In this document: one piece after another, positions 30,799 through 64,000 of the stretch
Position numbering within the stretch: the stretch's first letter is position 1
Layout: every line of letters begins with the position of its first letter
Origin: a virus
Lineage: Duplodnaviria; Caudoviricetes
IMG/VR virus record: IMGVR_UViG_2639763012_000002
Coordinates: 1-64,000 of that record
DNA: 64,000 bases
Reading direction: 5' to 3' (one strand)
The notes under the pieces: model-generated
Databases searched by the model: none
What the model saw: the letters and a program-made list of their open reading frames with translations, nothing else
Told to the model about the DNA's origin: nothing
Made by a program: the position numbers and the translations under genes

Positions 30799-30950
30799 CT
30801 TCCTCCCCCGCCTAAAGGCGGGGGATTCCAGCGGTCGCCCGCTGGGTTTCCTGCTTCACCAACGACCGCCCCGTCCGGGAGGACTCCCGTTGAGGTCTTA
30901 CACCGTCTCCACAGGCAGACGCCGCCAGCCCGGCGGCCAGGATGTTGCGT
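30775..30950 (-). ncRNA. Predicted TnpB omega/reRNA (scaffold overlapping tnpB 3' end plus flank-derived guide)
   Basis: Inferred from established TnpB architecture; 5' boundary approximate; guide would be CCCGUCGGCACCUCCGUAUC. Confidence 0.6.
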
Positions 30951-32181
30951 GCCGCGTTCACGTCACGGTCATGCGCCGTGCCGCACTCGCACGTCCACTC
31001 GCGGACGTTGAGCGGCATCTTCGCCGTGACCGTGCCGCAGGCCCCGCACAGCTTGCTGGAGGGGAACCAGCGGTCGATCACGACGAGTTCACGCCCGTAC
31101 CAGGCGCACTTGTACTCCAGCATGGAGCGCAGTTCCGTCCACGATGCGTCCGAGATAGCGCGCGCCAGGGAATGACTCTTCAGCAGGTTGCGGACCGACA
31201 GGTCCTCGATCACGACCACTTGGTTCTCATGGACGAGTCGAGTCGACAGCTTGTGCAGGAAGTCACGACGCCGGTCGACGATCCGCGCATGGACCTTGGC
31301 CACCTTGCGCCGGGCCTTCTCCCGGTTCGCCGATCCCTTCGCCTTGCGGCACAGCTCACGCTGTGCCTTCGCCAGGCGCGCCCGGTCCCGCCGTTCATGC
31401 CGGGGATTGGCGATCTTCTCCCCGGTGGACAGGGTCACCAGCGAGGTGATGCCCGCGTCGATGCCGACCGCCGCCGTGGTGGGCCGTGCCGGGGTAATGG
31501 TGTCCTCGCACAGCAGGGACACGAACCAACGTCCGGCACTGTCGCGAGAGACGGTCACCGTCGTCGGTACCGAACCTTCGGGAAGCGGACGCGACCAACG
31601 GATATCCAACGGCTCGGCCATCTTCGCCAGCGTCAGCTTCCCGTCGCGCCACTTGAAGGCGCTGCGGGTGTACTCGGCCGACGCGCGGGACTTCTTCCGG
31701 CTCTTGTACCGGGGGTACTTCGCCCGCTTGGCGAAGAAGTTGGCGAACGCCGTCTGAAGATGTCTGAGCGCCTGCTGGAGCGGGACGGAGGACACCTCCC
31801 TCAGGAAGGCGAGTTCCTCGGTCTTCTTCCACTCCGTGAGCGCGGTCGAGGACTGCACGTAGGAGACACGGCGGTGTTCGCCGTACCACGCGCGAGTGCG
31901 CTCCTCCAGCGCCTTGTTGTACACGAGACGGACGCAGCCGAACGTGCGCGACAGCTCAGCTGCCTGCTCGTCCGTGGGGTAAAAGCGGTACCGAAAAGCC
32001 CGCTTGACCTGCTGCGTCATGCCTCACATTCTATCAACTTCCCTGTCAGCGCCGGGCGTTGGCTGTTGGCCGGTGGACGCCGGTCCGCCCTGGCGGCGAA
32101 CCGGCTTTCCCTGCCCTGCTCCGCAGGAGCTTCGTTTCCTCCCCGACCTGAAGGCCGGGGTATCCACGAAGGAAGGCGCCG
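30795..32181 (-). mobile_element. IS200/IS605-family tnpB-only (IS1341-like) element
   Basis: Right end hairpin CCCCCGCCTTTAGGCGGGGG..TCAA; left end hairpin CCCCGGCCTTCAGGTCGGGG; inferred target TCAT at 32182-32185; no tnpA, no TSD. Confidence 0.88.
30812..32020 (-). CDS. tnpB: RNA-guided endonuclease TnpB
   Basis: RAFRYRFYPT HTH, RuvC GIDAG / IEDL / DRDVNAARN all intact, Zn finger CGAC..CEC. Confidence 0.97.
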   Translation of the reverse strand: MTQQVKRAFRYRFYPTDEQAAELSRTFGCVRLVYNKALEERTRAWYGEHRRVSYVQSSTALTEWKKTEELAFLREVSSVPLQQALRHLQTAFANFFAKRAKYPRYKSRKKSRASAEYTRSAFKWRDGKLTLAKMAEPLDIRWSRPLPEGSVPTTVTVSRDSAGRWFVSLLCEDTITPARPTTAAVGIDAGITSLVTLSTGEKIANPRHERRDRARLAKAQRELCRKAKGSANREKARRKVAKVHARIVDRRRDFLHKLSTRLVHENQVVVIEDLSVRNLLKSHSLARAISDASWTELRSMLEYKCAWYGRELVVIDRWFPSSKLCGACGTVTAKMPLNVREWTCECGTAHDRDVNAARNILAAGLAASACGDGVRPQRESSRTGRSLVKQETQRATAGIPRL

Positions 32182-55511: not shown

Positions 55512-55785
55512 CCGGACGCCGATGAGTGCCCGCGCGACGCTGGAGGTCATGGTCCGCACGGGCCGGGGCCAGATGACGGTCTGGTCTCCGACCGAGGTCA
55601 AGCAGGCGCTCGACCGCTACCGGGCTGAGGCGCGGGCCGACGTGCTGGTCGAGCAGGCCGACGAGATGGTGGACGCCTGCCCGGCGCACGGGGAGGCCGA
55701 GGAGGCGTGGACGGTGTGCCACTGCGAGGTCGCCGACGAGATGCGGCGCCTCGCCGACCTGATGCGTCCGGGAGGTGACCGGTGA
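55504..55785 (+). CDS. Hypothetical protein
   Basis: CPAHG..CHCEVA motif; coupled to DUF5131 gene. Confidence 0.6.
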   Translation: MANRTPMSARATLEVMVRTGRGQMTVWSPTEVKQALDRYRAEARADVLVEQADEMVDACPAHGEAEEAWTVCHCEVADEMRRLADLMRPGGDR

Positions 55786-56852
55786 GCGCGACGACCAAGA
55801 TCGAATGGACGGACGCTACATGGAACCCGGTGACGGGCTACACGAAAGTCTCCCCAGGGTGCGACAACTGCTACGCGGAGACGCTGGCGGAGCGCTTCCG
55901 GGGCACCGGCGGCCACTACTTCGAGCAGGGCTTCGACGTGACATTGCGGCCGGAAAAGCTGCTGGAGCCGCTGCGGTGGCGGAAGCCGCGCCGGGTGTTT
56001 GTCAATTCGATGAGCGATCTCTTCCATGCCTCGGTGCCGGACGAGTATGTGGCGCGGGTGTGGGCGGTGATGGCCCTGGCCCCGCAGCACACATTCCAGG
56101 TGCTGACGAAGCGGCACGGGCGGCTGCGGGCGCTGCTCAGCAGCCCCCAGTTCCGGGAGCTGTGCGAGGCAGAGTGGAACTGGTTGGTGGGCGACGAGTC
56201 CACTCCGATGCCGCAGTACCGGCGTGACGCGTTCATGCGGCAGTGGTGGAGCGAGTTCTCCAGGCCGTTGCGCAACGTCTGGTTGGGCGTCTCTGCGGAG
56301 GACCAGGAGCGCGCCGATCTGCGGGTGCCGGCCCTGTTGGAAACGCCGGCTGCTGTGCGGTTCCTGTCCTGTGAACCACTCCTCGGGCCGATCGACCTCG
56401 AAGGGCCGCTGGACGGGCCCGGGACCCGCCGGCAGTTGACGTACTGGCTGACGGGACGCCCCGGGGTCGGGGCGCCGAGCCCGACGCTCAGCGGTGTGGA
56501 CATGCGGCCCCTGACGGTGGGGCCGCGCCTTGACTGGGTGATTGCTGGGGGTGAGTCCGGGCGCGGTGCGCGTCCGATGCACCCCGACTGGGCCCGCCGG
56601 CTGCGGGACCAGTGCCAGCAGGCGGGCGTGCCGTTCCTGTTCAAGCAGTGGGGCGAGTACGTGCCGACTGGCTACCTGGTGATCGGTGGCACGGGCAGCG
56701 GCACGCTGGCCTTCAAGGACCCGGTGGACGAGTTGGGCCACCGGGTGGAGGTGCGGCGCGTGGGGAAGGGGCGCGCTGGCCGTGAGTTGGATGGACGGGT
56801 CTGGGACGAGTTCCCGACCCCGAGCCGGGCGCGCGGGGGTGAGGCGTCGTGA
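55782..56852 (+). CDS. DUF5131 (phage Gp37/Gp68) family protein
   Basis: TKIEWTDATWNPVTG..SPGCDNCYA, FVNSMSDLFH, QVLTKR, FLSCEPLLG, GGESG, FLFKQWG. Confidence 0.95.
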   Translation: MSATTKIEWTDATWNPVTGYTKVSPGCDNCYAETLAERFRGTGGHYFEQGFDVTLRPEKLLEPLRWRKPRRVFVNSMSDLFHASVPDEYVARVWAVMALAPQHTFQVLTKRHGRLRALLSSPQFRELCEAEWNWLVGDESTPMPQYRRDAFMRQWWSEFSRPLRNVWLGVSAEDQERADLRVPALLETPAAVRFLSCEPLLGPIDLEGPLDGPGTRRQLTYWLTGRPGVGAPSPTLSGVDMRPLTVGPRLDWVIAGGESGRGARPMHPDWARRLRDQCQQAGVPFLFKQWGEYVPTGYLVIGGTGSGTLAFKDPVDELGHRVEVRRVGKGRAGRELDGRVWDEFPTPSRARGGEAS

Positions 56853-57568
56853 GCGTGGAAACCCTCACTGCCGAGCTGCCGGCCGATGTGGAGGCCCTGC
56901 GGGAGCTGTGTCTGGCGCAGCGGGAGCAGCTGCGGCGGCTGGAGCGGGACGCGTTGACGGGGCTGCTGCGGCGTGAGCCCTGGCACGACCGCGCGGAGGC
57001 GTGGCTGGCCGATCCGGAGACCGGCCCGTGGGCGCTGGCATTCCTGGATCTGGACGGGTTCAAGCCGGTCAACGACCGGCTGGGGCACGCGGCCGGCGAC
57101 GAGCTGCTGCGCGCCATCGGTGGCCGCCTCTCCGCGTGGGCCGAGCGGGCGGGCGCTCTGGTTGGCCGGCTGGGCGGCGACGAGTTCGCCGCGCTGTGGC
57201 CGTCTGCCGGGCCGGAGGCGGCCCGAGTGGGGGCGGCCGAGGTGGCGCGGCGCATCGCCGTCCCGGTGCTGCTGACCGGGGACGGGCTGCCGCCTGCTGT
57301 GCGCGGCGCCCAGGTACGGGTGACGGCCTCGGTCGGCGTTGTTCGGCAGGCGGACCATCCGGACGCTGGGCTGGGCGAGTTGCTGGGGCTGGCCGACGCG
57401 GCGATGTACCGGGCCAAGGAGGCCGGCGAGGCCGGCGCTCCGGGGCCCCGGGTGTGGCTGGCCGACCCGGACGTCGCCGCATGGCGCGAGCGGGCTGCCT
57501 GCCAGCGGCCGGCTGGTGAGCGGCGGGCGGGACGGCCCTACCCAGCCCCCACCACCCCGCCCGAATAA
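56849..57568 (+). CDS. Diguanylate cyclase (stand-alone GGDEF)
   Basis: DALTGL, DLDGFKPVNDRLGHAAGDELL, GRLGGDEF, ADAAMYRAK. Confidence 0.93.
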   Translation: MSVETLTAELPADVEALRELCLAQREQLRRLERDALTGLLRREPWHDRAEAWLADPETGPWALAFLDLDGFKPVNDRLGHAAGDELLRAIGGRLSAWAERAGALVGRLGGDEFAALWPSAGPEAARVGAAEVARRIAVPVLLTGDGLPPAVRGAQVRVTASVGVVRQADHPDAGLGELLGLADAAMYRAKEAGEAGAPGPRVWLADPDVAAWRERAACQRPAGERRAGRPYPAPTTPPE

Positions 57569-57900
57569 CCACTGGGGACGGCCACCGCGCCGCCCCCACC
57601 TCTCCCACGCCAGGGCCCTGGCCGCGCACACCTGCGTCTGGCCGGGGCCCTGGCCCACCCATGCCTCACACACCCCCAACGCCCTGCCCGGGGCGGCTGG
57701 TTGAGCTGGCGCGGCGCGCTGGCGGGTCGGCGGTTTTCACGCGCTCCTGTGAACCGTCGCGCCGCCCTCGTGCGCCCGTGCCGCCGCTCCCACCCCCCGG
57801 GTCGGCCTGACCGGAGAACTACCGTGCCCCCGCACAAGAACCACCCCACCCACGACCGCCGCCAGGCACAGGCCGGAGCGTCCCGCCAGGCGGTGTCCCG

Positions 57901-59421
57901 GTGAGCATCGAGGCGCTGAACTACGCCGTGAGAGTCCGGGTAGGCGACCTGACGGCGAAATTTGTTCTCGGCCGTCTGGCCGACCGCGCTGACGAGCGCT
58001 ACTCCTGCTACCCCTCGGTCCCGCTGCTGGCCGCCGAGGCCGAGAAATCACCGCGCGTCATCCAGCGGGCGCTGGCCACGCTCCGCACGTTGGGTCTGGT
58101 CTCCGACCGTGTGACCATGCGCGCCGACGGCAGCCAAGGGGCGAACAGGTACTACCTGCACGGCCCTTGGGACGACTACGGCGGCACTGGGACGCCGTTC
58201 CCGGAGATCGTGACGCCCAAGGAGGCGCGGGCCGCGCGGTGGGCTCAGGCGCCAGCTGAGGGCGAGTTCCGGGCTGGTACGGCGGCGGCCGTCGCCGAGG
58301 ACGGGGACGAGGAGGCCGCCGCCGAAGTGCGGCGGCGCGTGGCCGAGGCGGCGCAGGCCGGACAGGAACGCCTCGAAGCGCGACGCGAGAAGGCAAGGAA
58401 AGCGGCCGCGGCAGCCCACGCGAAATCGCAGGTCAGCGACATTTCCGCAGGTGGGGATGGGGTGACGTCCACGTCGTCCCCCCCGGTGACGTGCACGTCG
58501 CCCCCCGGGGTGACGCCCACGTCACCCCTAGAACCATCAGTAGTAACCACCAACGAGGAACCCTCTCCCGTCCGTCCGTCTCGTAACGGTGAGGAGTGTG
58601 CGCGTGAGGCCGGAGACGAAACGGAGGGACGGACGGGCAGCGGCTCCCCCAGGGCAGGCGGTGGCACATCCGGCGCCCGGCCGGGGCCGGGTACCCCGGG
58701 TGTGCCGACGACCGAGGCCGAGGGCGAGGACCAGGGGCAGGACGTGCCGGCGGTGCGCGGCGCCGCAGCCCGGCCAGTGCCGTCCGGCGCACCTGCCGGC
58801 CGCCGGTCGCCCGGTGTCGAGTTGCTGCTCGCGATCGGCCAGGAGCGGCCGGAGTATCTGCTGACCGGCCGGACGCTGTCGGATCAGGGCCTGATGGTCA
58901 CGGGGATGCTGGACGCCGGGTGGTCGCCGGAGTTGGTGCGGCAGATCGTGGCGGGCCGGCCGCTGCCGCCGGCGGGTGAGATCCGGGCGAGCGTGGGGGC
59001 GATCGTCGCCGCCCGGCTGCGGGATGCGGTCAGCTCTGGCCCCCCGCCCCCACCCGGGCAACACCCGTTCGGGGCCGGCTCGTTGAACGGGAATGACCAC
59101 GGCCACAGCCTCGACCACGGCGCCGGCAGTTCGGGCAGGCCCGGCAGTCCCGGGCGGCCCTGGGACACGCCCACGCCGACCGCGCCCACCTACGGCCAGC
59201 ACCTCACCCGGGTCATGTCGGAATGCGAGGGCCAGGACGGGGCGTGCGGCCGACCCGTGCGCCCCGGCTACGACCTGTGCACCGGCTGCCTGGACCTGCC
59301 CTGGTGCGAGTGCGGCGCGGCCCGCATCGACCCCGGCCGAGGCGAGGAGCGCTGCCCGGACTGCGGGGCGGCGGCCGAGGCCCTGGGCGCCGCGCTCCAC
59401 GCTCCGCACACGGCCCGCTGA
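57901..59421 (+). CDS. Phage replication initiator-like protein (N-terminal HTH_36)
   Basis: MSIEALNYA..AKFVLGRLADRADERYSCYPSVPLLAAEAE..IQRALATL..DGSQGANRYYL; C-terminal Cys clusters. Confidence 0.8.
   Translation: MSIEALNYAVRVRVGDLTAKFVLGRLADRADERYSCYPSVPLLAAEAEKSPRVIQRALATLRTLGLVSDRVTMRADGSQGANRYYLHGPWDDYGGTGTPFPEIVTPKEARAARWAQAPAEGEFRAGTAAAVAEDGDEEAAAEVRRRVAEAAQAGQERLEARREKARKAAAAAHAKSQVSDISAGGDGVTSTSSPPVTCTSPPGVTPTSPLEPSVVTTNEEPSPVRPSRNGEECAREAGDETEGRTGSGSPRAGGGTSGARPGPGTPGVPTTEAEGEDQGQDVPAVRGAAARPVPSGAPAGRRSPGVELLLAIGQERPEYLLTGRTLSDQGLMVTGMLDAGWSPELVRQIVAGRPLPPAGEIRASVGAIVAARLRDAVSSGPPPPPGQHPFGAGSLNGNDHGHSLDHGAGSSGRPGSPGRPWDTPTPTAPTYGQHLTRVMSECEGQDGACGRPVRPGYDLCTGCLDLPWCECGAARIDPGRGEERCPDCGAAAEALGAALHAPHTAR
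58461..58529. repeat. Three 24-bp-period palindromic iterons inside the initiator gene (putative origin)
   Basis: GGTGACG-N4-CGTC(G/A) units at 58461, 58485, 58509. Confidence 0.75.
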
Positions 59422-60927: not shown

Positions 60928-61215
60928 TCATCCCTGGCGGGCGAACACCAGGAACAACACCACGACCACGACCACCAGCGCGCACGACACCCACCGATCC
61001 AGGCCGGACAGTTCGTCCGGTTCGGGCTCAGGGGCGTCCTGGTACGGCTCGGACGGTTCCGGCAGCTGAACGTCGATCCGCTCGCCGTCCGGGGCCAGCC
61101 CGTGGTGGGCCGCGGCGCGGTGCTCGGTCTGGTCGTCCTGGGCCTGGCGACGGGTACGGCGGGGCTCGGCGGTGACACCGCACAGGGCGCAGCGGTAGGT
61201 GTAGGGGCGGGACAC
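60928..61215 (-). CDS. Zn-finger membrane protein (paralog of 6531 and 48999 genes)
   Basis: YRCALC...HRAAAHHGLAPDG plus C-terminal TM; TACGCT -10-like box just upstream. Confidence 0.7.
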   Translation of the reverse strand: MSRPYTYRCALCGVTAEPRRTRRQAQDDQTEHRAAAHHGLAPDGERIDVQLPEPSEPYQDAPEPEPDELSGLDRWVSCALVVVVVVLFLVFARQG

Positions 61216-61309
61216 GACCGGTGAGCGTAGTGGTCAGTCGGCCGTGCCGCAGCGAGATCATGCGGATTCACCGGCCGCCCCACGCCGGCCGACCGTGCGG
61301 GCTATCCTC

Positions 61310-61342
61310 GTCCTGATCATCAGTCCCTGGAGGGATCATGCC
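61310..61342 (+). CRISPR. Solitary degenerate type I-B-like repeat upstream of cas8 (not an array)
   Basis: GTCCTGATCATCAGTCCCTGGAGGGATCATGCC following a TATCCT -10 box; similarity to actinobacterial I-B repeats judged from memory. Confidence 0.45.
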
Positions 61343-61385
61343 TCGGGCTCCAGCCGGTGCCCGTCGTCCCCCTGGGAGCCCTTTC

Positions 61386-62723
61386 GTGACTACTACCACT
61401 GTCCTGTCGCTCACTCACCACCCCCTCCAGCGTGCTGGCGCATGGGCTGTCACGCACATCGCGGGCCGGTTCCGGCCCGAGGAGGTGTCAGGGGATGACC
61501 TGGAGCTGGTCGTTGGGCTGATCGTCCGAGACGCGACTCGGGCTGCTGTCGCGCCGAAGGACGATGGCCCGGCTGGCTACGACTGGTGGAAGGTACTCTT
61601 CGCGCTCTTCCCGAACTCCAAGCCGACCCACGCCAAGCGCGGCCGGGACCAGGAGGTGATCCGTAGCAAGGTCGCGGCGCTGTTCGCCCCGGACGGCGTC
61701 ACCGGCCGGTCGTGGCCGTGTACGTTCTGCGCCCAGATGACGGGCACGGCGTGGGGGAAGTCGAATCTCCCCCTGTTCGACACGTCCAAGGCGTTGAACA
61801 ACGTGCCGCCGGGCGTGCCGGGTTGGCCGATCTGCCGTGGATGCCGGGTCGCGATCTGGACCCTGCCCTACGGGGCGTGGGTGACGGCTGGCTCGGCGAC
61901 GGTTTTCACCTGCGAGGACGAGGCAGCCGAGCGCCGGTTCGTCGAGCACAGCGTGGCCCGGTCCCGGCGGATCGTCGACGGCGGGTTCGAGGCGCTGGCG
62001 GCGGACGGGGTGGAGGACGGGCCGTTCGCCCTCGCCCTCCAGCAGCTGCGGGATGTCGGGGGCCGGCAGCACGCCGCCGGCGGGCTGGCCAGTTCCACGT
62101 TGTGGCGGTTCAAGAACGACAACGAGGAGCCCTGGCTGCGGGCGTCCTTCACCCGTCGGGCCGTGCCGCGCTTCCTGGCTCTGGTGCAGGGCAACGCGCC
62201 GCTGCGGGAGGCATGGGCGCTGCTGGAGGAGGCGTTGGTACAGCGGGACCGGCGCGGCAGGGTCGTGGCCAGCGGTGCGGGAGAGGCGGCGCGGCTGGTG
62301 TTCGAGGCCGAGGACGGAACGAGCCGGTCGTTGCTGTGGGCGTTGCACGAACTACGAGGCTCTGAGCGCCTGACCTCGGCGCAGCGGCACAACATCGCCC
62401 GGCTGGCCGGCGAGTACGGCCGGCATGTACTGGGGATCGATGATGGCAATCTGGCGCCGGCTGCCGAGGTGTTGGCCACGTGGATCTGGCGTGGCGGTCC
62501 CGAGGGGCAGCGGCAGCAGCGGCGGGCGGAGTACCTGGAGGCCGCGCCCAACCCCTACAAGTTGGGGTTGGTGATGATGCGGGCGAACTCCCGGCTGTTC
62601 CTGGCCGGTCTGCCGGTCAGGGCGACGGTGGAGGACTGGCGTCCGCTGCTCCAGTCTGACGCGCGTGCGTGGGCGCGTCGGCTGCTGTTGGGTGCGGCCG
62701 TGGATCGGCAACCCGTCGGCTGA
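61386..62723 (+). CDS. cas8: Orphan type I-B CRISPR large subunit Cas8b1/Cst1-like protein
   Basis: LTHHPLQRAGA N-terminus, LFPNS, CTFC..KSNLPL..LNN..ICRGC..WTLPYG (CxxC_CxxC) layout, helical C-terminal domain; GGGAG RBS before GTG 61386. Confidence 0.7.
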   Translation: MTTTTVLSLTHHPLQRAGAWAVTHIAGRFRPEEVSGDDLELVVGLIVRDATRAAVAPKDDGPAGYDWWKVLFALFPNSKPTHAKRGRDQEVIRSKVAALFAPDGVTGRSWPCTFCAQMTGTAWGKSNLPLFDTSKALNNVPPGVPGWPICRGCRVAIWTLPYGAWVTAGSATVFTCEDEAAERRFVEHSVARSRRIVDGGFEALAADGVEDGPFALALQQLRDVGGRQHAAGGLASSTLWRFKNDNEEPWLRASFTRRAVPRFLALVQGNAPLREAWALLEEALVQRDRRGRVVASGAGEAARLVFEAEDGTSRSLLWALHELRGSERLTSAQRHNIARLAGEYGRHVLGIDDGNLAPAAEVLATWIWRGGPEGQRQQRRAEYLEAAPNPYKLGLVMMRANSRLFLAGLPVRATVEDWRPLLQSDARAWARRLLLGAAVDRQPVG

Positions 62724-62760
62724 TCTCGTGGGGTGGTCTGCGTGGCTCCCCCAACCCGCT

Positions 62761-62805
62761 TGTAACGTGCCCCCGTTGACTTTCGTAACGGGGGCACGTT
62801 ACATT
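62761..62805 (+). promoter_or_regulatory. Promoter overlapped by a perfect 17-bp inverted repeat (double operator)
   Basis: tgtaacgtgcccccgtt-N9-aacgggggcacgttaca; TTGACT-18-TACATT. Confidence 0.8.
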
Positions 62806-62842
62806 CGTGGTGTTGGGCCACCCACTCACCATGGAGGACACC

Positions 62843-63469
62843 ATGACCGACGCCCCCCTCGCCACCGTCACCGTCGCCGACTGGGACGCCGCCGAGGTGT
62901 ACCTCGCCGAGCACACCAGCGACGCCACCTACACCCTCACCGAGCTGACCGCCGCCCACGACGCCGACCTCCACGAGATCCGCCTCGACCCCGAAACCCG
63001 CACCATCTGGTGGGCCTACGACAACGGCCCCGTCCGCGGCAAGGGCTGGACCGTCGACCACCTCACCCCGGCGGCCGCCGCCGAACAGGCCGAGCCCATC
63101 ATCGACACGACCCAGGACCGCATGGGCGACCCCGAGGGGTACGCCGGGCAGATCCACCGCCTCGACGACGACCAGGCGCTCCTCGACGAGTACACCGAGA
63201 TCCTGCGCCTGACCCTCCCTGCCGACCCGCAGGCCGCCCGCGCCGAGATCCGCACCCGCCGTGCTCTCGCCGACGCCTTGTGGCAGCGCGCCGACGCCGA
63301 GCTGGTCCGCAGCCTCGCCGGCAGCGACCGGGGCGGCAAGGCCGCCGCCGCACGGACCCTGGGCATCACCCGGATGCAGGTCACCCGTCTCATCAGCGAC
63401 GACGACAGGCGGCGGGACGCCCTCACCCAGGCCGTGCGGGAGGCGGAAGCCGACTACCCCGACCGCTGA
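62843..63469 (+). CDS. Acidic N-terminal domain fused to a C-terminal HTH
   Basis: GGAGG RBS; D/E-rich first ~125 aa; GGKAAAARTLGITRMQVTRLI HTH. Confidence 0.8.
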   Translation: MTDAPLATVTVADWDAAEVYLAEHTSDATYTLTELTAAHDADLHEIRLDPETRTIWWAYDNGPVRGKGWTVDHLTPAAAAEQAEPIIDTTQDRMGDPEGYAGQIHRLDDDQALLDEYTEILRLTLPADPQAARAEIRTRRALADALWQRADAELVRSLAGSDRGGKAAAARTLGITRMQVTRLISDDDRRRDALTQAVREAEADYPDR

Positions 63470-63500
63470 TCGACCCAGCCGCGCCGCGCTATAGTGCTAA

Positions 63501-63529
63501 CCTCATCGCCCCTACGAGGGGACCCCTGC
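63501..63529 (+). CRISPR. Solitary type I-B-like repeat (not an array)
   Basis: CCTCATCGCCCCTACGAGGGG with CCCCT-ACG-AGGGG hairpin, 6 nt after a TATAGT -10 box; 3' handle region diverged (ACCCCTGC). Confidence 0.55.
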
Positions 63530-63579
63530 CAGCCAGCCGTGGCCCATGGTGCGCCACGGCCGACCGACGGACGGCCCTC

Positions 63580-64000
63580 GTGCACTACGGCGACCGCGAC
63601 GGATACGGCCAGTACGGCATCCTGGACGACGACGGCGAGCGGGTGCTGTGCCACGAGTGCGGGCGGCGCTACCGCCAGCTCCCGTACCACATCAATCGGG
63701 CGCACGGGATGACGGCAGTCGAGTACCGGGCAGCCCACGGCCTGAGCGTGACGCAGCCGTTGGCGTCCGACAGCCTGACGGCGACGCAGCGCGCCAACTC
63801 CACCAGGGTCTACGCCCAACGCCCCGACATCCGGGCCATGCTCGCCGACGCGCTGAGCCGGGGCTGCTCCGCGGCGGCGTCCCGGGCTGCGCAGGCCGCC
63901 GCGCCGGACTCCCTCGCCCGTGCCGCCGAGCGGCATCGCCGCCGGGTCGCATCTGCTCGCCTGGCGGAGCGCGAGCGGGCCGCGAAGCGGCGCAGGCTCG
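63580..64000 (+). CDS. Ros/MucR-like Zn-finger protein, truncated by the window end
   Basis: Manual translation: DGERVLCHECGRRYRQLPYHINRAHGMTAVEYRAAHGL..PLAS. Confidence 0.75.
   Translation, partial: MHYGDRDGYGQYGILDDDGERVLCHECGRRYRQLPYHINRAHGMTAVEYRAAHGLSVTQPLASDSLTATQRANSTRVYAQRPDIRAMLADALSRGCSAAASRAAQAAAPDSLARAAERHRRRVASARLAERERAAKRRRL

Follow-up and report, generated by a model that had tools for sequence, protein, structure and literature searches.

Viruses of bacteria can carry single CRISPR (short palindromic repeats, clustered and regularly interspaced) repeats outside of any array, and a solitary repeat placed close to a promoter has a phage precedent as an RNA anti-CRISPR that acts as a decoy (PMC10651486). 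As described there, viral solitary repeats often lie directly after a promoter, cluster with anti-CRISPR (acr) genes, and match the CRISPR subtype of the host in 83% of cases; one such unit is co-transcribed with an acr gene. In RacrIF1, as presented in the same paper, activity resides in the stem-loop together with the sequence upstream of the Cas6 cut, and the 5' handle can be altered or dispensed with. The present analysis concerns a 64-kb stretch of viral DNA (Duplodnaviria, Caudoviricetes; positions 1 to 64,000 of IMG/VR record IMGVR_UViG_2639763012_000002), referred to in its entirety as the window, and in particular a repeat-like hairpin in the leader of a cas8 gene that it encodes. This hairpin, called solitary repeat unit 1 (SRU1), is probably a 3'-truncated type I-B CRISPR repeat of the RNA anti-CRISPR kind, which doubles as the leader of a defective prophage cas8 and is predicted to be bound or cut by the Cas6b of the host.

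Viral homologs of Cascade subunits have also been described as inhibitors. The Cas5-like AcrIB3 and AcrIB4, the latter corresponding to the C-terminal 90 residues of Cas8b, inhibit the type I-B system of Listeria as faulty Cascade parts, and full natural Cas8b is described as not having inhibited it (bioRxiv 10.1101/2023.06.24.545427). The 358 orphan viral cas genes listed in that study possibly include the present element, and the 2,103 viral units in the supplement of PMC10651486 might already include SRU1. CRISPR RNA (crRNA)-like RNAs and arrays of viruses (Cracr), and CreR/CreA of hosts, form another described group (bioRxiv 10.1101/2024.10.29.618823). The inhibitors tested in the cited work, as far as it describes them, came from Pseudomonas, Pectobacterium, Listeria, Bifidobacterium, and Salmonella; no search was aimed at type I anti-CRISPRs of actinomycetes.

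The repeat-like hairpin in the cas8 leader

The promoter and leader of the cas8-like gene must be located within the intergenic region upstream of it (Table 1). The parts that the original prediction had named in this leader were all found at the expected positions: TATCCT (61303-08), a 21-nt repeat-like stretch (61317-37), GGGCTCC (61345-51), GGAGCCC (61375-81), and GTG (61386-88), which is in frame with ATG 61338 (open reading frame 61338-62723).

Repeats for comparison were collected from arrays beside homologous cas8 loci and from six further genomes. This gave 49 distinct repeat consensus forms, 38 of which were aligned, with one row reversed, while 11 flanking-base variants or partial forms were dropped. 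Repeats of this I-B family begin with a 5' part, which is followed by a 5-bp stem in which three C-G pairs are invariant and which carries a 4-nt loop, and they end in an 8-nt tail. The I-B repeat of Haloferax, a hairpin followed by an 8-nt tail, has the same layout. The pair flanking the CCC/GGG core covaries in the 38 repeats (GC in 11, AU in 7, GU in 6, CG in 5, UA in 5, and other pairs in 4), and the covariation score of the family was reached by none of 500 shuffles.

A covariance model of the 38 repeats (R1), run unfiltered on both strands of the window, gave 26 matches up to E 10, and the top match was 61323-61337 on the plus strand (13.6 bits, E 0.28). A second covariance model (R2) and a profile hidden Markov model were made from 51 leader/first-repeat junctions; 50 of the arrays were chosen for their leader motif and one (L050) was added manually. 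For R2, SRU1 was the best match of the window as well as of 72 kb of contig flanking it. When the profile was applied to the 7.7-Mb genome, only arrays of the host itself ranked above window positions 61306-61337 (10.9 bits, E 2.3). The 13-nt hairpin of the L055/L062 repeat type occurs a single time in the genome, at 61324-61336, and the 9-nt 5' part of the same repeat, which has 163 copies in the genome, is located 2 nt upstream of it. The weight of these results lies in rank and place: SRU1 is the best match of 128 kb, and of 15.5 Mb outside arrays, and it is on the sense strand inside the 170-nt leader of an orphan cas8. The model ranks, the unique words, and the genome-wide profile bear out the earlier view that the hairpin is derived from a CRISPR repeat, and indicate that it is cognate to the system of the host.

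SRU1 retains the 5' part of the repeat, the hairpin, and 2-3 nt beyond the hairpin, and up to that point all invariant columns of the family are kept. Relative to the family, 2-4 nt are inserted before the stem, and the last 5-6 nt, which make up most of the 8-nt crRNA 5' handle, are replaced. Plain local alignment of SRU1 with the host's own repeat showed agreement at 17 of 21 positions with one gap. The unit stands alone: CRISPR-like tandem structure is absent from the window, and 2.2 kb separate it from the nearest other unit. It is intergenic, it is on a prophage, and the host of that prophage carries the matching I-B subtype.

In 50 arrays, one side only showed a conserved motif that ends, a few bases short of the repeat, in a T-rich, -10-like box, and this side was taken as the leader. 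By this definition SRU1 and a second unit, SRU2, both read in the leader-to-repeat (crRNA) sense, and the -10-like boxes before the two units occupy the position of the T-rich box of array leaders. When compared by eye, the stretch before SRU1 and the leader end of the L050 array agree at 17 of 21 positions, with two gaps. We infer a promoter at this place; descent of the units from a leader-repeat junction is a lead rather than a finding. The array motif is also of interest in itself. It is 21 nt long, has its T-rich -10-like end, and lies about 25 nt before the first I-B repeat in the 50 arrays (loci L004-L093), which range from Streptomyces to Nonomuraea. It could be a leader-anchoring site, the array promoter, or both.

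The orphan cas8 gene and the second leader

The gene behind SRU1 had been called cas8 from its sequence, and this identification was confirmed by 57% identity of its product to the host Cas8 (250/436, E 1e-163). Among family libraries, Pfam gave Cas_CXXC_CXXC at a sub-threshold E of 0.087 and PADLOC gave Cas8b at E 2.6e-4; NCBIfam and PHROGs returned nothing for this protein, and the matches of a profile search of PDB were all irrelevant, being designed repeat proteins. Among 5.8 billion proteins searched, the host Cas8 (57%) was the nearest relative, followed by operonic proteins of at most 54% identity, some of them named Cst1. There were 62 homologous loci in reference genomes: 60 were flanked by cas6 and cas7, and the remaining two were short fragments. 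The cas8 of the window, by comparison, is a Cascade-subunit homolog on a prophage and outside any cas operon. No second orphan cas8 was found in 218 proteins (E<=1e-20), in 400 genomes of the same genus, or in viral contigs. The viral Cas8 does not form a diverged orphan clade; it is a singleton that is closest to the host's own gene.

The choice of GTG 61386 over ATG 61338 as the start of this gene is upheld. The third position is G or C in 8 of the 16 codons at 61338-61385, compared with 0.88 in the gene body (P 2e-4). In the 11 operonic homologs that were aligned, the start is 4-13 residues before a conserved HPLQR block in nine, and 17 and 22 residues before it in the other two; the viral Cas8 would have 11 residues before this block from GTG 61386 and 27 from ATG 61338. 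In addition, the GTG of the second leader is placed correspondingly. The source's own gene call (412 aa, from GTG 61485) removes conserved residues. A GGAGG inside the SRU1 hairpin mimics a ribosome-binding site 4 nt before ATG 61338, but because it is part of the loop and stem of the repeat family itself, it does not speak for that start. On the sequence evidence, GTG 61386 is favored as the likelier start.

The viral copy lacks two features of its operonic relatives. All 11 operonic Cas8 proteins in the alignment carry a C-terminal acidic tail, about 45 residues long, which is missing from the viral protein, the gene for which ends at 62723. Furthermore, 19 of 24 operonic genes have an in-frame internal ATG, 9-12 nt behind a GGAG-type site, which would yield a C-terminal piece of 124-136 residues; this motif was missed in four of the 24 genes and matched elsewhere in one. 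By comparison of these genes, the internal ATG is likely the start of Cas11b, and internally translated Cas11b has been described for other I-B systems (PMC11899642). At that position (window 62415-62450) the viral gene has ATC (codon 62436-62438) and no GGAG-type site.

The order of parts seen before cas8 had also been predicted at 63490, and it is indeed repeated there: TATAGT (63490-95), a hairpin (63502-26), an 8-bp stem (63537-44/63553-60), and GTG 63580. The two leaders could be aligned over their entire length, with 72% mean column identity. The repeat that SRU2 resembles is that of the L085 and L078 arrays, which adjoin a distant cas8 subfamily (26-34% identical) and differ in their repeat. 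For the first 23 nt of this repeat, the sole genome site within 4 mismatches was 63499-63521, with 3 mismatches, and these fall to 1 of 21 once the first two bases are dropped. The 3' tail is replaced in SRU2 as it is in SRU1. The prophage thus bears two solitary units mimicking two I-B subfamilies, each in sense and each heading a gene, SRU2 being placed before the second gene after cas8. BLAST of both leaders against the genome gave no further copies. A pattern common to both leaders, with two occurrences in the window and three in the genome, was drawn post hoc and is descriptive, not a test.

The gene headed by SRU2 exits the window; in the contig it encodes a ROS/MucR protein of 482 aa (to L086 5028), in which the zinc finger is N-terminal. 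Homologs of this MucR-like gene, 35-38% identical, were found in 3 of the 400 same-genus genomes. No match to the repeat model was found before the homologs at E<=5 over 5 loci, and the sole weak match in these loci was on the minus strand (L099 2951-2981, E 1.9).

It had further been proposed that a second stem sequesters the ribosome-binding site of cas8. The complementary heptamers over that site are present, and the 3' arm overlaps GGGAG (61374-78), 7 nt upstream of GTG 61386. Its stability did not exceed that of shuffled sequences. Folding of 61340-61392 (53 nt) gave -17.7 kcal/mol, compared with -17.1 +/- 2.5 for shuffled sequences (z -0.23; 72 of 200 shuffles as good), and the whole leader gave -30.4 compared with -28.3 +/- 3.5 (z -0.60; 49 of 200 as good). 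The second stem does form in the 53-nt sub-fold, but in the minimum-energy fold of the full leader the arms of the repeat hairpin pair with 61366-77 and the second stem is unused. The octamer GGGAGCCC over the ribosome site is not enriched (2 found vs 8.1 expected). The leader at 63490, which is paralogous, has no counterpart of a stem covering the ribosome site, and its best fold is within chance (z -1.48). There is no support for a dedicated structure that sequesters the ribosome-binding site. No orphan cas8 homolog and no orthologous leader was found in which covariation might show.

Table 1. Features of the window between the small divergent gene and its right end
Feature	Position	Strand	Description or evidence
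Intergenic region	61216..61385		170-nt gap between a divergent small open reading frame (60928-61215, minus) and the cas8-like gene; open reading frame list and map of third-position G+C
-10-like box TATCCT	61303..61308	+	1 nt before the repeat-like unit; putative promoter
SRU1, solitary type I-B CRISPR repeat, crRNA sense	61310..61337	+	Covariance models, profile, exact words
SRU1 hairpin	61324..61335	+	4-bp stem (fifth pair, G-U, possible); 4-nt loop identical to the commonest of the family
Second stem	61345..61381	+	Heptamers 61345-51 and 61375-81, fully complementary; sequence
Orphan viral cas8 (Cst1/Cas8b type)	61386..62723	+	445 aa from GTG 61386
Perfect 17-nt inverted repeat	62760..62805	+	Arms 62760-76 and 62786-802; candidate operator before the next gene
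Open reading frame with weak C-terminal helix-turn-helix	62807..63469	+	Probable start ATG 62843 behind GGAGGA
-10-like box TATAGT	63490..63495	+	Second module
SRU2, second solitary repeat unit	63499..63521	+	Matches a second I-B subfamily's repeat (L085, L078 arrays) in its 5' part and hairpin
8-bp stem of second leader	63537..63560	+	Away from the ribosome site of that gene
ROS/MucR zinc-finger protein	63580..64000	+	Several helix-turn-helix units; GTG 63580; exits the window

The host CRISPR system and the prophage

The host has a type I-B locus on another contig, consisting of cas6b (E 3.7e-90), an unrecognized open reading frame that is the host cas8, cas7b (E 2.4e-65), cas5, cas3b (E 9.8e-211), cas1b, cas2b, and three arrays; the arrays of the host include ones of 15 and 26 repeats. 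In the small array upstream of the host cas6 (G000:C23:389977-390813), about ten more degenerate repeats were found by profile than by exact-word search.

One of the 41 host spacers, the tenth of the array adjoining cas2 (G000:C23:399937-399975), matches G000:C17:281965-282003 at 39 of 39 positions. The remaining spacer matches of at least 24 nt outside arrays number nine, and these are partial, with 1-3 mismatches. Past the window, the contig encodes a large serine recombinase (G000:C17:285789-287291) and a Gp3-like recombination directionality factor. The self-target is in or beside the directionality factor gene, 4 kb from the serine integrase and 20 kb past the viral cas8, a site also put at 26 kb beyond the end of the window, and lies in the same prophage as the viral cas8 or in one adjoining. 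The three bases preceding the protospacer, in crRNA sense, are TCG.

About 2 kb beyond the window is an orphan cas6e (PF08798, E 6.9e-25; L086 5836-6456), flanked by six I-E-like repeat hairpins (L086 5650-5830 and 6433-6530; window-equivalent 65650-66530) with periods of 61, 41, and 62 nt. Cas7e and Cse1 were not found in the host, and the spacers of the I-E mini-arrays had no target elsewhere in the genome. No array or mini-array is present within the window, only single units; the true mini-arrays, of I-E type, are outside it. An anti-CRISPR use of the region is suggested because of the self-targeting spacer, the loss of the tail and internal start of Cas8, and the nearby cas6e and mini-arrays. 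We infer this function for the wider setting, which is most likely an anti-CRISPR island.

The window, with a G+C content of 70.5%, is a prophage that encodes terminase, portal, Mu-F-like, HK97-gp10-like, tape-measure, and receptor-binding proteins and has a replication initiator gene at 57811-59418. A TnpB (IS605 OrfB, with a Cas12f-like TNB domain; 30815-32023, minus strand) is inserted among the prophage tail genes, and at 55779-57565 a DUF5131 (Gp37/Gp68-like) gene precedes one for a GGDEF diguanylate cyclase. A tRNA scan of the window found none, and Rfam gave no matches at gathering level in the whole window; at E<=10 on 6 kb it gave only microRNA-like matches, all on the palindrome at 62760, and no curated family. 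The sole sigma-70-like promoter of the region, 62776-62805, is overlapped by the 17-nt inverted repeat. Judging from its sequence, the protein encoded at 62807..63469 is a candidate regulator of the island, of an Aca-like kind. A 3.5-kb query against a phage collection gave as its sole match 79 nt of a helix-turn-helix gene in a Gordonia phage.

Alternative explanations and comparison with known systems

In the mechanism proposed for SRU1, transcription would start near 61314-61316, so that the RNA would open with that portion of the repeat which, in a crRNA, is the 3' handle bound by Cas6. The Cas6b of the host would bind, and probably cut, at the 3' base of the hairpin (about 61335-61337), and would thereby be tied up as it is by an RNA anti-CRISPR. 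The downstream RNA would be translated from GTG 61386 into a Cas8 that may compete with the large subunit of the host. The 7-bp stem over the ribosome site would be incidental.

Several results weigh against this proposal. The E-values of the repeat searches (0.2-2.3) are individually non-significant and the case depends on rank and position. Plain local alignment with the host repeat puts SRU1 among the highest scores of the window, yet not in first place (20 vs 22-24 at other sites). The isolated hairpin is weak (-6.2 kcal/mol, z +0.73), and its arms pair elsewhere in the minimum-energy fold of the full leader. A sigma-70 consensus scan called no promoter at either leader, being silent also at the -10-like hexamer 1 nt upstream of SRU1, and a profile of the leader motif only missed both prophage sites among its 423 matches, though it found three host leaders. 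There is no orthologous locus for the leader of the viral cas8. Upstream of the Cas6 cut, SRU1 would have about 20 nt, whereas the corresponding inhibitory part of RacrIF1 is long enough to be drawn, according to a figure legend in PMC10651486, with Cas7 subunits numbering eight to nine, at 6 nt per subunit. Finally, the self-target could be tolerated for other reasons, such as a non-permissive protospacer-adjacent motif or an inactive system.

Other explanations of the two leaders were weighed against the same data. The units may be relics of recombination between a phage and CRISPR arrays, in which leader-repeat junctions were acquired either together with the cas8 copy or apart from it; they would not interact with Cas proteins and would at best act as a normal promoter and 5' untranslated region. 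The loss of the repeat 3' end in both units, the insertion in SRU1, and the placing of the -10-like boxes as in array leaders all fit with this, and because the element is unique, purifying selection cannot be shown. However, SRU1 keeps each family-invariant position of the hairpin and its near flanks while the flanks diverge, and two units of two subfamilies, both in sense and both heading genes of one island, are hard to obtain by accident. Furthermore, in the host loci the arrays are directed away from the cas genes, so that a unit captured simply along with cas8 would have the opposite orientation. The relic explanation is considered unlikely. The chance explanation, by which the hairpin is merely the GGAGG ribosome-binding site of a gene starting at ATG 61338 and only resembles a CRISPR repeat by accident, is highly improbable. 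The spacing of 4 nt to this in-frame ATG and the simple alignment, in which the host repeat does not have its best window match here, are in its favor, but the third-position G+C of codons 61338-61385 and the fit of homolog starts to GTG 61386 are not; the GGAGG belongs to the family's own loop and stem, and the genome-wide rank tests (word and profile for SRU1, match for SRU2) oppose accident.

The original prediction took the leader to be a Cas-responsive translational switch, in which the stem 61345-51/61375-81 hides the ribosome site of GTG 61386 until Cas loading or cutting at the hairpin opens it. The full complementarity of the heptamers, the overlap of the 3' arm with GGGAG, and the formation of the stem in the sub-fold agree with a switch. 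When the full leader is folded, the same GGGA is paired with the repeat hairpin's 5' arm, so that the site could become free if the hairpin were removed or held. In the I-F case described in PMC10651486, cutting by Cas6 also yields a more stable 5'-OH RNA. Folding energies no better than those of shuffles, a paralogous leader that has no stem over its ribosome site, and the want of homologous leaders for covariation count against a switch, and a messenger RNA leader controlled by Cas6 was not encountered in the literature as cited here, in which no search was aimed at one. The switch is doubtful, and more so than the relics. A broader version, intermediate between these two in likelihood but still rather improbable, is that anti-CRISPR genes are wired behind copies of leader-first repeat junctions and, once transcribed, are processed by host Cas6b as an array's first unit would be, the cut freeing both a Cas6-bound decoy and a stabler, 5'-OH messenger RNA whose ribosome site is also freed. 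If this were true, the output of the defective Cas8 and the neighboring regulator would rise only in cells with a cognate type I-B system, and two units for two I-B subfamilies would mean that a broader range of hosts is sensed.

If SRU1 and SRU2 are RNA anti-CRISPRs as preferred here, the prophage has a compact anti-CRISPR island directed at systems of type I-B, and perhaps I-E, in Streptomyces-like actinomycetes. Its two RNA decoys would be accompanied by a Cas8 that is crippled although near full-length, by a Cas6e, and by mini-arrays, and the lysogen that carries the island targets the element from its own array. Inhibitors of this sort would be of use as switches when the genomes of antibiotic producers are edited with native CRISPR systems, and a repeat that serves as the leader of a viral cas gene would be a clean test case for control of messenger RNA by Cas6 processing.

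The locus was compared with known systems, among them the Racr RNAs. Like RacrIF1 and RacrIC1 as described in PMC10651486, SRU1 is a single repeat in an intergenic region of a prophage, after a promoter-like box, of the subtype of the host, and beside candidate anti-CRISPR genes; the stem-loop is kept as in RacrIF1, and the 5' handle that is dispensable there is lost here. Unlike the Racr units presented in that paper, SRU1 is the 5' leader of a protein gene; it is neither an independent small RNA nor placed 11 nt behind an acr gene. It also lacks the 3' end of the repeat, and only about 20 nt separate its predicted start from the hairpin. The units here are of type I-B, a term with 0 occurrences in the main text of that paper.

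The viral Cas8 resembles AcrIB3 and AcrIB4 in being an orphan homolog of an I-B Cascade subunit on a prophage and outside a cas operon, and its expected mode of action would likewise be that of a faulty subunit. It differs from AcrIB4 in that it is near full-length and lacks the tail and internal start, the opposite part of the protein. A repeat-like leader is not mentioned in the available account of those inhibitors (bioRxiv 10.1101/2023.06.24.545427). The Cracr elements, in the account given of them, are phage CRISPR-like RNA units that use host Cas proteins against host immunity, often together with Acr proteins, and the I-E-like mini-arrays beyond the window, one with a 41-nt period, look Cracr-like, so this comparison may apply to them. 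SRU1 and SRU2 differ in having neither a second repeat nor a spacer-like part with a 5' handle, and consequently cannot guide Cascade. With the leader-first repeat junction of I-B arrays, the units share a sense-oriented repeat that a T-rich -10-like box precedes by a few nt, but they have no spacers or further repeats, and the leader-motif-only profile passes over both.

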